From a virus (lineage: Duplodnaviria > Heunggongvirae > Uroviricota > Caudoviricetes): DNA of 5,474 nucleotides. Below are positions 854 to 4,265 of this stretch, piece after piece. Made by a program: the position numbers and the translations under genes. Location: IMG/VR virus record IMGVR_UViG_2698536677_000017, one strand, 5' to 3'. Positions within the stretch are counted from its first letter, which is position 1. Every line of letters begins with the position of its first letter. The notes beneath the pieces were generated by a model. That model saw only the letters and a list, made by a program, of their open reading frames with translations, had not been told where the DNA came from and ran no database searches.

Positions 854-1569
854 TTACTTCACAACCCTCATATTGCTGACATTTGGACGCCAGCTATCCC
901 AGTTAAACGTCACCCATCGACCACCGTTCATGGTCATGCGGTCCATAATCCTCTCACCAAGAAGCGTACTCATTGCGGCATGATTCAGGTTTGTTAACAT
1001 CCCGACACTGCACAGTGATGCTGTCCGGCGATCAATTATCTGGTGCAATACCACCTGCTCGTTTTTCGTCTCCCGCTGAACGCCTATTTCATCCAGGACC
1101 AGCAAATCAACCCCGCAAAGCTCCTGTAAAAATTTTTCCCCGGATTTGCCGTTGTCGTAGCTGTCATGCAACACGCTCATGACGTCAGACACGGTGACGA
1201 TAATCACGCTGCGCCCCTTCACCATCAGCCGGTTGCCCATCGCCGCTGCAAGGTGATTTTTCCCGGTGCCACGGTCATCAGTTCGTCAGCTATGGATTTG
1301 GCCTGGCTCAGCGCGTATTTTTGCCCGTCGTTCTGCACCTGATAATTTGCAAACGAGCATTTGCTGTGCAGAGGCTGGATGCCCGAACGATTCAGGATTT
1401 TTTCCACCCGCAACTGGCGATTCTGGCGGTTAATCTCCTCGCTGCGTTTTCGTCCTTCAGCAAGTTGCCATTCCCGCCACTCCTCCACCGTCCGGTACGG
1501 TGGAACCGACCCCTGTGGTGCAAGTCTGCGAATACGTTCAAGAACCCCAACTGCCGCAATGTTTTTCAT
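854..1569 (-). pseudogene. DnaC-like helicase loader (phage replication protein, YdaV-like), disrupted by a frameshift in the Walker-A region
   Basis: Two overlapping minus-strand ORFs, 1225-1569 (N-terminal, ...NRSGIQPLHSKCSFANYQ...) and 854-1240 (C-terminal, ...VDLLVLDEIGVQ...MLTN...WVTFNWDS...), together cover a DnaC-like protein. The Walker-A core GTGKNHLAAA is encoded around 1238-1270 in the frame of the C-terminal ORF, but the N-terminal ORF reads through it out of frame (MTVAPGKITLQRRWATG then stop). The in-frame text just upstream (RTDDR) does not resemble the expected P-loop lead-in, suggesting an indel. Confidence 0.75.
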
Positions 1570-1575
1570 GACACG

Positions 1576-2538
1576 TCACCCCCTGAATCCCGGCGGTATT
1601 TCAGTGTCCGGTTCAGAAATGTGATTCACGCAACGCTGCGCAGGCGAACGCCCCAGGCGGATAACCAGTTCATCCCATTTTTCCCGGAGTTTTGCCGGAC
1701 TCATGATGTTTTTTACCCAGAACGAATCCCGCTGGAGACGCCCAAACATTTCACAAATTTGTCTGTGAGTTCTGCCATCCAGCATCCGCATTGTGCGAAC
1801 GTCATTGGCCCATGCTGTCCAGTTGGGTTCTTTCGGTCTAGTGATCTCGCCATCATAGCTGGCCGCCTGCTCGTAAAGACTCACGATTCGTCCCCAGATC
1901 CACTGTGCGCACACCAAATCTTCCTGACTTCCCCACTGGCGTTTTTTCGCACTGAACACAACCGCGTCAGGGTGTCGGGTTAAAAAATCCTGTTCAGCCG
2001 TCTGCGGGTCCGGTTGCGAAGCGTCCGGACAAGAAGATCTTTTATCTGACGGATCAGGTTTTAATACTGACGGATCGGGGTCAATCATCGCCCCCCTAAT
2101 CGGCAGTTTTTTATCAACAGTTGATCCATCAAAATTTGACGGGTCAACCGTTGAGGGGTCAATATTTGACGGGTCAACTGTTAACGGGTCATTTTTTGCC
2201 GGGCTAATTTTTCTTTTCGGTTTATATGACTCACGCGCCGCCGCCGCAGCTGCTTCGAGTTTTTCCACATTAAGCCGATAGATATTGCTTACATTACGCC
2301 CACCGACCTTACGCTCTTCCTTCGTCAGCCAGCCCTCTTTCGCCAGTTCTGCAATAGCCGATTTCACTGTGGATTCACTTCTTGCACCGATCTGACGCCG
2401 GATAGTTTCAATGGCAGGCCATGACACGCCCTCGTCATTGCTGTAGTCTGCAAGACGGGCCATAACCGCCACCCTGGATAAGATCATGCCGGTGAAGGCG
2501 CACCCTTCCCAGACAAGACCATGAAGCTTGCTGCTCAT
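1576..2538 (-). CDS. Replication initiator, lambda O-like / YdaU-like (N-terminal HTH DNA-binding domain, origin iterons inside the gene)
   Basis: Long minus-strand ORF. Start chosen as ATG (complement of 2536-2538) with a GGGGG SD-like run 4 nt upstream; an alternative GTG start lies at 2553. The N-terminus (MARLADYSNDEGVSWPAIETIRRQIGARSESTVKSAIAELAKEGWL) is HTH-like; the middle encodes DP(S/L)xxDPSTVD repeats matching the DNA iterons. Its stop is 6 nt before the DnaC-like start. Confidence 0.8.
   Translation of the reverse strand: MSSKLHGLVWEGCAFTGMILSRVAVMARLADYSNDEGVSWPAIETIRRQIGARSESTVKSAIAELAKEGWLTKEERKVGGRNVSNIYRLNVEKLEAAAAAARESYKPKRKISPAKNDPLTVDPSNIDPSTVDPSNFDGSTVDKKLPIRGAMIDPDPSVLKPDPSDKRSSCPDASQPDPQTAEQDFLTRHPDAVVFSAKKRQWGSQEDLVCAQWIWGRIVSLYEQAASYDGEITRPKEPNWTAWANDVRTMRMLDGRTHRQICEMFGRLQRDSFWVKNIMSPAKLREKWDELVIRLGRSPAQRCVNHISEPDTEIPPGFRG
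2047..2195. repeat. Iteron array (putative replication origin) inside the O-like gene, followed by an AT-rich tract to about 2230
   Basis: Seen in sequence: near-palindromic core TGACGG(A/G)TC(A) at 2047, 2068, 2137 and 2167, with variants TGAGGGGTC at 2152, TAACGGGTC at 2182 and TTGATCCATC near 2121. The last four copies sit at a regular 15-bp spacing. Immediately downstream is ATTTTTTGCCGGGCTAATTTTTCTTTTCGGTTTATATGA (about 2191-2230). Confidence 0.55.
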
Positions 2539-2560
2539 AAAACCCCCGAACACCGTGCTT

Positions 2561-2986
2561 TTAGTGCATCACCACAGCATTCCCTGCCGGGCCGCCGCGA
2601 TTCATCTGGTCATACAAAACAACCGCTGACGCAACAAAATCATCGACATCCTTCACCAGCCGATCCCTCCGTTCGACGATCTCACGGTAATATTCAGAAC
2701 TGTGGCTGCGCATACGGGCCACCAGCAAAGGCGGCATCGCCTTTTCGATCGCCGGTAACAGAGCCTGCATTTTTTTAACAGCATCAGGGGTGTCTTTCTC
2801 TACCCAGCGGAAAATTTTCTGGGTATTACGGGCCAGGGCTTCCGGATGGCTGTCGTCATACAGTTCCGGGAACGTCATTCCCAGCTCGAAATACGCTTTG
2901 GTAATTTTCGCAGCCGGTACTTTTTCGCCGTCCGGATGCGCCCAGACATTCATCGCCATGCGGATGTGTTCATGCTTGATTTTCAT
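2561..2986 (-). CDS. YdaT-like protein (Rac-type early gene; described either as a CII-like regulator or as a putative toxin)
   Basis: 141-aa ORF beginning MKIKHEHI..., ATG start with GGAG 7 nt upstream. Its start overlaps the stop of the upstream Cro-like gene by 4 bp (ATGA). Position (cro-like, then this gene, then O-like, then DnaC-like) matches the Rac ydaS-ydaT-ydaU-ydaV order. Family call is from memory. Confidence 0.65.
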   Translation of the reverse strand: MKIKHEHIRMAMNVWAHPDGEKVPAAKITKAYFELGMTFPELYDDSHPEALARNTQKIFRWVEKDTPDAVKKMQALLPAIEKAMPPLLVARMRSHSSEYYREIVERRDRLVKDVDDFVASAVVLYDQMNRGGPAGNAVVMH

Positions 2987-3285
2987 GAATCAACTCCATC
3001 AGATAAGCATGTACTACAATCACCTTCAGCATGAACTACATGTGTTTGCCCCAAACGAATGCCGCTCGCATACTCAGGCCAAATAAGCTCCCAATCATGG
3101 GGTCGTAGCTCCGCCCTACTTACTTGGCCTTCCGTCGCAGATTCGATCATAAGGGCGCGGGTTGGAGATATAGCTGTTCGTCCAGACGCCATTTGCGATA
3201 AGTAAGATGGCGATACACCAAGTCTGGCCGCGAATTTCTTAGCATCACCAACCCTTAATGATTTAATAAACTCTTTTAATGTCAT
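2983..3285 (-). CDS. Cro-like HTH regulator, YdaS family
   Basis: 100-aa ORF, ATG (complement of 3283-3285) with GAGGAAGG SD just upstream. The motif LGVSPSYLSQMASGRTAISPTRALMIESATEGQVSRAELRPHDW is typical of the YdaS/Cro-like HTH family. First gene transcribed leftward from the divergent operator region. Confidence 0.8.
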   Translation of the reverse strand: MTLKEFIKSLRVGDAKKFAARLGVSPSYLSQMASGRTAISPTRALMIESATEGQVSRAELRPHDWELIWPEYASGIRLGQTHVVHAEGDCSTCLSDGVDS

Positions 3286-3382: not shown

Positions 3383-3754
3383 ATGCAAAAAAAAGAAATT
3401 CGCCGTTTACGTCTCAAGGAGTGGTTTAAAGATAAAACTCTGCCACCCAAAGAGAAGAGCTACCTATCTCAACTAATGAGTGGGAGAGCCTCGTTTGGAG
3501 AAAAGGCTGCCAGAAGAATAGAGCAAACATACGGGATGCCGGAAGGGTATCTGGATGCGGAATACGCAGAACAACCGGGGGTTTCTCCACCACATGCAGG
3601 GTTAACGTCTAATCAACTGGAATTATTGCAGATTTTTTCAGCCTTCCCTGAGGATGAGCAACGCCAGATAATCAGCGAGTTAAAGCAGAAAAAAGAATCA
3701 ATGGAAGATCTCATAGCGAGATGGATTGCGGCGCAAAAATGCCGCCGCGCCTGA
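3383..3754 (+). CDS. Prophage repressor, short HTH protein, DicA/RacR-like (no S24 peptidase domain)
   Basis: ATG at 3383 chosen over the GTG at 3320 given in the ORF track, because the upstream extension would cover the operator/promoter sequences. The N-terminal segment EKSYLSQLMSGRASFGEKAARRIEQTYGMPEGYLD is HTH-like; the C-terminal segment LTSNQLELLQIFSAFPEDEQRQI resembles the DicA C-terminal region as I recall it. No SD precedes the start and the -10 lies 7 nt upstream, so the mRNA is probably leaderless. Confidence 0.75.
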   Translation: MQKKEIRRLRLKEWFKDKTLPPKEKSYLSQLMSGRASFGEKAARRIEQTYGMPEGYLDAEYAEQPGVSPPHAGLTSNQLELLQIFSAFPEDEQRQIISELKQKKESMEDLIARWIAAQKCRRA

Positions 3755-3774
3755 GTTATAAAACCGGAGGAAAC

Positions 3775-3966
3775 ATGAATAGAGCCCTTTCACCAATGGT
3801 TTCTGAATTTGAAACCATTGAACAAGAAAACAGTTACAACGAATGGCTGCGTGCGAAAGTAGCAACGAGCCTTGCAGATCCGCGCCCAGCAATTCCCCAT
3901 GACGAAGTTGAGCGCAGAATGGCAGAACGCTTTGCTAAGATGCGTAAGGAACGGAGCAAGCAGTAA
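3775..3966 (+). CDS. Type II antitoxin, ParD/RelB-like ('stability determinant' type), partner of the downstream ParE-like toxin
   Basis: 63-aa ORF (MNRALSPMVSEFETIEQENSYNEWLRAKVATSLADPRPAIPHDEVERRMAERFAKMRKERSKQ). ATG at 3775 with GGAGG (3766-3770) 4 nt upstream; the upstream ATG at 3721 overlaps the repressor and has no SD. The stop TAA (3964-3966) is 1 nt before the toxin ATG. Small, acidic-to-basic profile and position upstream of the toxin are typical of antitoxins. Confidence 0.7.
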   Translation: MNRALSPMVSEFETIEQENSYNEWLRAKVATSLADPRPAIPHDEVERRMAERFAKMRKERSKQ

Positions 3967-3967
3967 A

Positions 3968-4246
3968 ATGTTACCCGTGTTATGGCTTGAAAGCGCAGAT
4001 ACCGACCTAGATGATATAACTAGTTATATTGCTCGTTTCGACATAGATGCGGCTGAACGCTTATGGCAGCGATTAAGGGGTTGTGTGCTGCCGTTATCCG
4101 AACATCCGTATTTATACCCACCAAGCGACAGAGTACCTGGCTTGCGTGAGATTGTAGCCCACCCTAACTATATAATTCTATACCGCGTAACAACATCAAG
4201 CGTTGAAGTAGTAAACGTGATCCACGCAAGACGCCAGTTTCCCTAA
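3968..4246 (+). CDS. Type II toxin, ParE/RelE superfamily
   Basis: 92-aa ORF (MLPVLWLESADTDLDDITSYIARFDIDAAERLWQRLRGCVLPLSEHPYLYPPSDRVPGLREIVAHPNYIILYRVTTSSVEVVNVIHARRQFP). The pattern W..A..DL..I..YI...D...A, then PG.RE......YII.YRV, then V.VV.V.H.RR at the C-terminus is characteristic of ParE/RelE toxins. ATG at 3968, 1 nt after the antitoxin stop. The ORF-track start at 3872 would overlap the antitoxin and is rejected. Confidence 0.8.
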   Translation: MLPVLWLESADTDLDDITSYIARFDIDAAERLWQRLRGCVLPLSEHPYLYPPSDRVPGLREIVAHPNYIILYRVTTSSVEVVNVIHARRQFP

Positions 4247-4265
4247 CTTTCACTACCAATAGAAA

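Follow-up and report, generated by a model that had tools for sequence, protein, structure and literature searches.

A probable lambda-style replication origin inside the initiator gene of a Rac-type Escherichia coli prophage

Introduction

Replication origins located inside the gene for the initiator protein are known from the phages lambda, φ80 and P22, and the origin of phage L has been inferred from sequence (PMC8022706). Does a prophage initiator gene that encodes a different kind of DNA-binding domain also harbour its own origin, or do the repeats in its coding sequence serve only the peptide that they encode? This question is raised by a 5,474-nt stretch of viral DNA (Caudoviricetes; IMG/VR record IMGVR_UViG_2698536677_000017), which at its full length is referred to below as the window. 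It comprises the immunity and replication region of a lambdoid Escherichia coli prophage of the Rac/YdaS-YdaT type, and a near-identical prophage lies beside potC in strain FDAARGOS_536. The gene in question (1576-2538, minus strand) encodes a replication initiator of 320 aa, and a sequence-only reading of the window had proposed that the repeats inside this "O-like" gene, together with an adjoining AT-rich tract, form the prophage origin. Our comparison of the locus with its relatives leads us to regard it as very likely that the region at about 2026-2233 is indeed a lambda-style origin lying inside its own initiator gene, with putative initiator-binding sites at 2116-2205 and 2047-2076 and with unwinding most likely at 2037-2066, rather than in the AT-rich tract originally pointed out.

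Results and discussion

A 15-bp iteron array in the initiator gene

The motif TGACGGRTCA, with at most one mismatch allowed, occurs eight times in the window against 0.56 ± 0.74 copies expected, and none of 200 shuffled sequences reached eight. Seven of the eight copies lie inside 2047-2191 (at 2047, 2068, 2122 on the minus strand, 2137, 2152, 2167 and 2182), which bears out, well beyond chance, the position that the sequence-only reading had given for the repeats. A repeat search identified five copies at an exact 15-bp spacing in 2114-2203, and Tandem Repeats Finder (TRF) reported a period of 15 bp (5.2 copies) and, as the better description, a 30-bp super-period with 84% matches over 2114-2212. 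Read in codon register, the array consists of six in-frame 15-bp units including one degenerate unit (2116-2205, minus strand), all of them candidate initiator-binding sites. On the coding strand the units are AGCCCGGCAAAAAAT (2191-2205, the degenerate one), GACCCGTTAACAGTT (2176-2190), GACCCGTCAAATATT (2161-2175), GACCCCTCAACGGTT (2146-2160), GACCCGTCAAATTTT (2131-2145) and GATGGATCAACTGTT (2116-2130), that is, GAC CCG TCA AAT ATT and variants thereof. The minus-strand translation, NDPLTVDPSNIDPSTVDPSNFDGSTVD ... DPDPSVLKPDPSD, agrees with the DPSxVD-type linker that had been described from the sequence. The array occupies nt 334-423 of the gene and encodes aa 112-141, inside a linker predicted to be disordered (aa 108-183).

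The array also has a marked symmetry at the DNA level: TTGAC/GTCAA half-sites alternate in orientation every 7-8 bp along its length, and each unit has two dyad centres, which score 0.66 and 0.59 compared with a median of 0.22. Elsewhere in the intact prophage (25 kb) the motif is found only once, at the junction of the initiator gene with the adjacent helicase-loader gene. This extra copy, TGACGTGTCA (one mismatch; 1569-1578), falls where the stop codon of the initiator gene overlaps the start codon of the loader gene; the intact prophage has it too, and it may be due to chance. Three other sources of constraint on this DNA were considered and rejected: no open reading frame (ORF) of at least 40 aa in any other frame covers 2047-2230, no embedded promoter or terminator site was found in 1900-2600, and no known RNA family from Rfam matches the window.

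Selection on the DNA of the array

The relatives used for comparison comprise initiators of phages SfIV, SfII, Flotzy, YeP1, φP27 (L17), 716R3 and Kp4866-6, whose N-terminal domains (N-domains) are 51-72% identical to that of the window, 80 prophage loci (54-78% identical) from one-genome-per-species contigs across Enterobacterales, and 80 near-identical viral contigs. In every full-length relative an in-frame array with a period of five codons directly follows the winged-helix domain. Across 89 genes with N-domains 52-100% identical to that of the window, lag-15 identity amounts to 0.48 over gene nt 286-435 compared with a baseline of 0.24, and the N-domain, taken as a control in the same 89 genes, gives no lag-15 signal. 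The number of units ranges from about 2 to 9 (median 4.5), close relatives differ by exactly one 15-bp unit, and homologues at 88-90% identity are 320, 315, 310 and 305 aa long. Whether homologous genes keep the number and the phase of the repeats had been suggested as a check; position and 15-bp phase are kept, but the number is not.

Arrays of the subfamily to which the window belongs show 30- or 45-bp super-periods. The initiators of Edwardsiella ictaluri and E. anguillarum (333 vs 348 aa) differ by one 45-bp (15-aa) block, and therefore higher-order units also expand and contract. Because of the 30/45-bp super-period our lag-15 segmenter under-detects the arrays of this subfamily, for which the logos are unreliable and the arrays were read from translations.

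The unit consensus is GAC-nCn-TCA-AAA-TCT (350 units from 81 distinct arrays), and its codon usage departs strongly from that elsewhere in the same genes. Ser at unit codon 3 is encoded by TCA in 307 of 331 cases (93%; background 15% of Ser codons) and Ser at codon 5 by TCT in 184 of 239 (77%; background 9%), while Lys at codon 4 is AAA in all 213 cases and Asp at codon 1 is GAC in 82% (background 44%). Codon 5 specifies various amino acids (S/F/I/P/N/T/Y) but retains T or C as its third base, and codon 2 likewise varies widely in amino acid while its bases remain constrained. Among 15 representatives with N-domains at most 80% identical to each other, TCA accounts for 45 of 51. Since synonymous sites are fixed, selection acts on the DNA rather than on the peptide: the codon pattern is the one expected from selection on a protein-binding DNA site and not from selection on a linker peptide. 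Arrays of the type found in SfIV consist of the units TCAAAATCTGAC. SfIV is UV-inducible, forms plaques and has been propagated (PMC3851460), so the array is present in a replication-competent relative, as the proposal of an origin had anticipated.

One of the phage relatives deserves a separate comment. The GenBank record of φP27, AJ298298 (1501-2427), contains the HTH_36-type initiator L17, annotated as "unknown" and followed by a DnaC-like gene. The O protein of "P27" has been described as lambda O with two substitutions, accompanied by six lambda-type iterons (PMC7466680). The two sources appear to describe different replication modules.

A conserved core block and the candidate unwinding element

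The second conserved element is a core block at 2026-2085 (minus strand) with two copies of GATCCGTCA, located at 2068-2076 and 2047-2055 and spaced 21 bp, and with AT-rich DNA between and after the copies. Its coding strand reads ATT GAC CCC GAT CCG TCA GTA TTA AAA CCT GAT CCG TCA GAT AAA AGA TCT TCT TGT CCG and encodes aa 152-171, within the disordered linker. The core consensus derived from 85 distinct genes is TTTnACCCgTCAGAATCTGGnGGgGATCCGTCAGTAAatTCAAaacaaGATCCAtcAg, with third codon positions that hardly vary even between genera; the consensus of 85 distinct genes anchored on the first GATCCGTCA is TTTnACCCgTCAGAATCTGGnGGg GATCCGTCAGTAAatTCAAaacaaGATCCAtcAg..Aaaaaa. In gene pairs with N-domains at most 70% identical, an amino acid shared by both genes is encoded by the identical codon at a frequency of 0.79 in the core block against 0.38 in the N-domain. 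One close relative is without exactly one 21-bp GATCCGTCA copy. We propose that the core block combines high-conservation candidate initiator sites with an unwinding element.

Inside the core block lies a low-stability segment (2037-2066) with a ΔG over 30 bp of -34.2, compared with a window mean of -40.9 (sd 3.6). We averaged duplex stability over the family and scanned the profile between -210 and +155 nt relative to the anchor; the sole clear minimum covers the 30 bp from +10 after the first GATCCGTCA (-33.7 vs about -41 kcal/mol), which corresponds to 2037-2066 in the window, on the promoter-distal side of the repeats, where lambda and φ80 also have their AT-rich regions. The end of this segment, AAAAGATCTTC, resembles the ends of the AT-rich regions of lambda and φ80. 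It is the best candidate for the DNA-unwinding element.

The AT-rich tract that the sequence-only reading had likened to the AT-rich region of lambda (2190-2233) does exist, with a GC content of 0.33-0.40 over 2180-2229, and it includes the least stable 30-bp window of the initiator gene (2204-2233, ΔG -33.2). The likeness to lambda did not stand, as the tract lies on the opposite side of the repeats from the AT-rich region of lambda, being upstream of the array as the gene is read. The Lys-rich stretch that it encodes (KPKRKISPAKN) is confined to the subfamily of the window (relatives in Erwinia, Mixta, Edwardsiella and Morganella) and missing from the SfIV-type majority, and the family-average profile has no minimum at its position. 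For these reasons we disfavour it as the unwinding element conserved in the family; in this particular lineage it may assist melting as an accessory region. A third low-stability segment, TTTTTTATCAACAGTTGATCCATCAAAATT (2107-2136, ΔG -33.5), is located at the promoter-distal end of the array.

The 91 bp of 2036-2126 contain a cluster of four GATC (Dam) sites (2036, 2052, 2073 and 2123), against 3.1 per kb in the window, and family-wide GATC is found at 16.3 per kb in the core block compared with 3.2 per kb over the remainder of the gene, i.e. a five-fold enrichment. A perfect DnaA-box consensus, TTTTCCACA, is present on the plus strand at 2261-2269, 30 bp beyond the AT-rich tract. Involvement of DnaA was considered and rejected, because the window contains 9 boxes vs 11.2 expected and only two of the 89 family genes, those of the window and one close relative, hold the box at 2261-2269, which is probably there by chance.

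The initiator as a mosaic protein

The start codon of the initiator gene at 2538 coincides with the RefSeq start in an identical locus, where the product is labelled only "helix-turn-helix domain-containing protein" and no origin feature is given. Over its entire length the protein matches PHROG 391 ("replication initiation O-like"; E-value 2e-115, residues 1-320 on profile positions 1-298), its cluster has 3,163 member sequences, and 914 homologues were found at E-values of at most 1e-10, of which the 120 listed have PF13730 with few exceptions. At the N-terminus the only Pfam match is HTH_36 (27.8 bits, cut-off 25), in addition to a weak match to DnaD_N. An AlphaFold model built from 30 homologues divides the protein into a winged-helix N-domain (aa 1-105, 2224-2538; predicted local distance difference test (pLDDT) score 75-88), the disordered linker (aa 108-183, 1990-2217; pLDDT <50), a helical C-terminal domain (C-domain; aa 184-296, 1651-1989; pLDDT 75-86) and a disordered tail (aa 297-320; pLDDT <50), all encoded on the minus strand. 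The predicted fold of the N-domain matches winged-helix proteins of the MarR/ArsR type, which are typically dimers on palindromic sites.

The C-domain is homologous to gp15 of phage φ80 (BLASTP: 36% identity over 124 aa, aa 183-304, E-value 5e-26). The N-domain has no match to PF04492 (Phage_rep_O), the family to which lambda O, φ80 gp15 and P22 gp18 match with E-values of 6e-25 to 7e-38. "O-like", as the gene had been called, is therefore appropriate for the architecture, the C-domain and the PHROG 391 assignment, but not for the N-domain, which belongs to HTH_36. Sequence searches found no solved structure of lambda O. Because the N-domain is not detectably related to Phage_rep_O and the C-domain is homologous, the protein is a mosaic of a different, putatively origin-binding domain and a φ80-type effector domain. 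At the DNA level, 1583-2043, which encodes the C-domain, shares 86% identity with phages mEp460, HannyBb and PhiR42_1; the similarity covers only this segment and stops at a mosaic junction (2043-2044). This end of similarity at the edge of the repeat region is consistent with a mosaic initiator, and within the family several unrelated C-domains follow the same core block.

The C-terminal end of the initiator (aa 300-320, AQRCVNHISEPDTEIPPGFRG, window 1579-1641) resembles the C-terminus of the E. coli primosomal protein DnaT (14 of 21 residues identical; PDB 2ru8, 6aep and 9zbt; E-value about 0.01), which accounts for the label "primosomal protein I" on relatives. Many members of the family end in IPxGFRG. 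The DnaT-like tail may serve as a common peptide on which host replication proteins dock.

Distant HTH_36 initiators

More distant HTH_36 initiators, with N-domains 34-42% identical to that of the window, are encoded by the Stx phage Min27, Vibrio phage D62, Pectobacterium phage ZF40 and Salmonella phage S107. Each of the four genes contains 3-5 palindromic repeats of a different sequence with 21/24-bp spacing right after the winged-helix domain, about 270-420 nt into the gene (e.g. CCTAGTGACAAAATGTCACCA in D62 and GGGGCAGGAGCTGCCC in Min27), and in D62, ZF40 and S107 the repeats are followed by two copies of GAACCAGTCA placed 17 bp apart. The recurrence of clade-specific palindromic repeats ahead of a short conserved pair points to one layout of the origin throughout this superfamily. 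The sequence of the repeats changes with the clade of the N-domain, parallel to the differences seen among lambda, φ80, P22 and L; of these, lambda, P22 and L are known to carry different iterons inside their initiator genes (PMC8022706; PMC7466680).

A proposed mechanism and its alternatives

That the array occupies a place in the gene matching the annotated sites of lambda, φ80 and P22 supports its role as an origin. In the mechanism that we propose, transcription from an early rightward-type promoter upstream of the cro-like gene would both make the initiator and pass through the origin. The N-domain, with its predicted winged-helix fold, would bind the TTGAC-NN-GTCAA / GTCAA-NNN-TTGAC dyads of the array and also the better conserved GATCCGTCA sites at 2047-2076, in both cases probably as dimers. 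Cooperative filling of these packed sites would distort the DNA so that an adjacent low-stability segment melts, for which 2037-2066 is the best candidate and 2204-2233 a possible second one. The φ80 gp15-homologous C-domain would then bring the phage DnaC-like loader and host DnaB to the opened DNA, and the four clustered GATC sites may place firing under Dam/SeqA control. The pentapeptide repeat would be a by-product, with a linker that tolerates whatever the DNA sites encode.

A more tentative version, which we think doubtful though worth considering, is that the origin has two parts and differs in kind from ori-lambda, combining a variable, clade-specific array with a near-invariant core. 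If so, dimers placed every 15 bp on alternating faces of the helix, as the spacing here implies (sites in distant relatives are 21-24 bp apart), would build a filament rather than a wrapped O-some. The GAWCC(N)GTCA pair flanking AT-rich, GATC-rich DNA, common to clades with different iterons and C-domains, would form the core and could be a common element for unwinding and helicase loading, possibly read single-stranded or controlled by Dam/SeqA. In that case initiation itself would take place at the core, and the array would determine specificity or copy control.

Several other explanations of the conserved DNA have to be weighed against a lambda-style origin. The conserved DNA, chiefly the GATCCGTCA block, might be a crossover junction for swaps of N- and C-domain modules instead of an origin element, which would agree with the mosaic breakpoint at about 2043, right at the core block, and with the variety of C-domains that follow this block. 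We regard it as unlikely, since it leaves unexplained the dyad-symmetric 15-bp array, the conserved stability minimum, the GATC enrichment and the recurrence of repeats plus a short pair, with different sequences, in the distant initiators; besides, a junction is compatible with an origin, given that the homologous C-domain DNA of lambda and φ80 also starts just after the AT-rich region. Less likely still is that a different protein (a phage regulator, a host factor, or SeqA in the case of the GATC cluster) occupies the sites, which would then act in regulation or copy control rather than initiation. The five-fold excess of GATC in the core block and the perfect DnaA-box consensus nearby could be cited in favour of this idea, but the box is found in only two of the 89 genes and the box count is at chance, the array always accompanies the N-domain and its sequence type follows the N-domain clade, and no copy of the motif is present in the operator/promoter region or, the loader junction apart, elsewhere in the prophage.

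We give even less credence to the view that the repeats are only a disordered (DPSxV)n peptide linker, with the DNA repeat generated by slipped-strand duplication and without any role in cis. The region is predicted to be disordered, all units are in frame, and they are gained or lost as wholes, as slippage would give; yet a constraint on the peptide does not fix synonymous codons to the extent reported above for TCA, TCT and AAA, the codon bias persists across lineages at most 80% identical in which synonymous sites of the N-domain have diverged, the bases of codons 2 and 5 are constrained although the amino acids vary, and a peptide repeat does not need the dyad symmetry of the units. The least probable explanation of all, in our opinion, is that selection maintains a hairpin in the initiator mRNA, or a DNA cruciform, which controls translation or mRNA stability. 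The sense RNA of 2100-2215 does fold at -37.7 kcal/mol (z = -7.9 vs shuffles), with 33-nt arms of 79% complementarity, but any tandem dyad-symmetric array folds in this way, so that the score is not independent evidence. The iterons of lambda fold likewise (PMC7466680), the change in unit number from gene to gene means that no fixed hairpin is conserved, and Rfam offers no match.

A number of observations weigh against the lambda-style origin that we favour. The similarity to lambda is architectural only, as homology of the N-domain to lambda O and P22 gp18 is undetectable (hhalign probability 0.4% and 6%, respectively). In lambda, φ80 and P22 the sites are spaced more widely, by 20-24 bp or about two helical turns, than the 15 bp found here, and such a short period sets neighbouring sites on nearly opposite faces of the helix, so that a wrapped complex like that of lambda is not to be assumed. 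The melting segment could be any of several AT-rich candidates, frequent recombination at the module junction could account for part of the conservation of the core block, and the co-variation of array and N-domain is confounded by co-inheritance, since they are physically adjacent. In the literature on this initiator family, including SfII, SfIV and SfV, we found no report of binding, footprinting or origin cloning, and the literature on lambdoid iterons and prophage initiators yielded only the general precedents of lambda, P22, L and Stx phages. Finally, the loader gene is broken in the window: aligned to the intact 248-aa gene of strain FDAARGOS_536, it carries a 31-bp deletion between 1271 and 1272, adjoining the sequence that encodes Walker A (GTGKN), which splits it into two ORFs. 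The deletion is apparently absent from the eight best complete E. coli genomes listed, each of which aligns in two pieces. The loader gene is thus inactivated, and the origin copy of the window is probably silent unless a loader is supplied in trans.

The prophage and its relatives

The initiator gene is part of a minus-strand series in the order cro, cII-like gene, initiator gene and DnaC-like loader gene. The Cro-like gene of the YdaS family (2983-3285) and the cII-like gene of the YdaT family (2561-2986) were assigned from their ORFs and from Pfam/PHROG matches, as was a DUF1627 gene (62-832) on the same strand; the initiator ORF between them was assigned by Pfam HTH_36 and PHROG 391, and the DnaC/IstB-type helicase-loader gene (854-1569) by its matches to IstB_IS21 and to PHROG 50 ("DnaC-like helicase loader"). 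Divergent from the cro-like gene, on the plus strand (3383-4246), is a module of a PaaR2-like regulator, a PaaA2 antitoxin and a ParE toxin, whose 123-aa PaaR2-like regulator occupies the usual place of a cI-type repressor. The 1,101-bp initiator region (window 1500-2600), used as a query, is matched over at least 80% of its length in 1,513 of 5,426 complete E. coli genomes.

Two circular sequences contain relatives of the initiator gene. OR902858.1 (15.2 kb) resembles an excised e14 element, with an icd fragment, mcrA, an invertase and tfaE, and its CDS 3701-4252 encodes a truncated initiator of this family, with 67% identity over aa 1-79. NZ_CP148542.1, a 15,977-bp "E. coli plasmid", consists of nothing but the early region of this prophage, from the repressor, cro, initiator and loader genes through Q, holin and lysozyme; no plasmid replicon type is assigned to it, and a frameshift, which may stem from a sequencing error, interrupts a C-run of its initiator gene. 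The record may represent a prophage fragment capable of autonomous replication or else an artefact of assembly, and owing to the frameshift we rejected it as evidence for such replication.

Implications

What is new here is the prediction of an origin of this kind in a different family of DNA-binding domains, with a tighter repeat period and without annotation in RefSeq. It would provide an annotation rule for many prophages of Enterobacterales, namely a winged-helix N-domain followed, in this order, by an in-frame palindromic array and a GATCCGTCA pair, and the predicted origin marks where escape replication of cryptic prophages would begin. The locus also represents a natural case of dual coding, in which constraint on synonymous sites locates a cis element within a gene.

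Comparison with known origins

The origins of theta plasmids have a winged-helix Rep protein, iterons of ~19-22 bp, an AT-rich region and DnaA boxes. The initiator gene studied here shares with those of pSC101, P1, F and R6K a winged-helix initiator, tandem direct repeats and an adjacent AT-rich region, and with P1 oriR and oriC the clustering of GATC. Unlike in theta plasmids, however, the predicted origin lies inside the coding sequence of the initiator, the period is 15 bp instead of ~19-22 bp, no conserved DnaA box accompanies the AT-rich region (2/89 genes), and the protein has a single winged-helix domain joined to a phage-type C-domain.

The agreement with lambdoid phages is closer. P22 has a rep_origin annotated inside gene 18 (nt 353-497), although gp18 is a Phage_rep_O protein, its repeats are unrelated to those described here, and the next gene encodes a DnaB-type helicase rather than a DnaC-type loader; for gene 18 of phage L the origin was assigned by the same kind of reasoning from sequence as here. 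Gene 15 of φ80 encodes a homologous C-domain and contains four annotated gp15-binding sites inside the gene (nt 365-441), and the AT-rich stretch after these sites ends in AAAAGATCTTCG, compared with AAAAGATCTTCT here. It differs in its Phage_rep_O N-domain and in its iterons, which are of the GGAAAnnnTTCCCGAAAAC type and spaced 21 bp.

Ori-lambda consists of four ~19-bp dyad-symmetric iterons and an AT-rich region in gene O, and the O protein binds it via its N-domain. In both cases the origin, predicted in the present one, lies inside the ORF of the initiator (annotated iterons at nt 349-433 of O, the array at nt 334-423 here), the repeats are dyad-symmetric with an A-rich centre, and the repeat region encodes the linker between the domains. 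In both, a helicase-loader-type gene comes next in an operon with the order cro, cII-like, initiator, loader, and an easily melted segment (predicted at 2037-2066 here) is on the promoter-distal side of the repeats. The two differ in the N-domain (HTH_36 here, Phage_rep_O in lambda O), in the arrangement of sites (exact 15-bp tandem units as opposed to sites spaced 20-24 bp), in their number (six units plus two to three outlying sites vs four) and in the partner protein, which here is a DnaC/IstB-type ATPase and not lambda P. The accepted picture of lambdoid replication is unchanged by these findings, and would be extended to a second family of DNA-binding domains.

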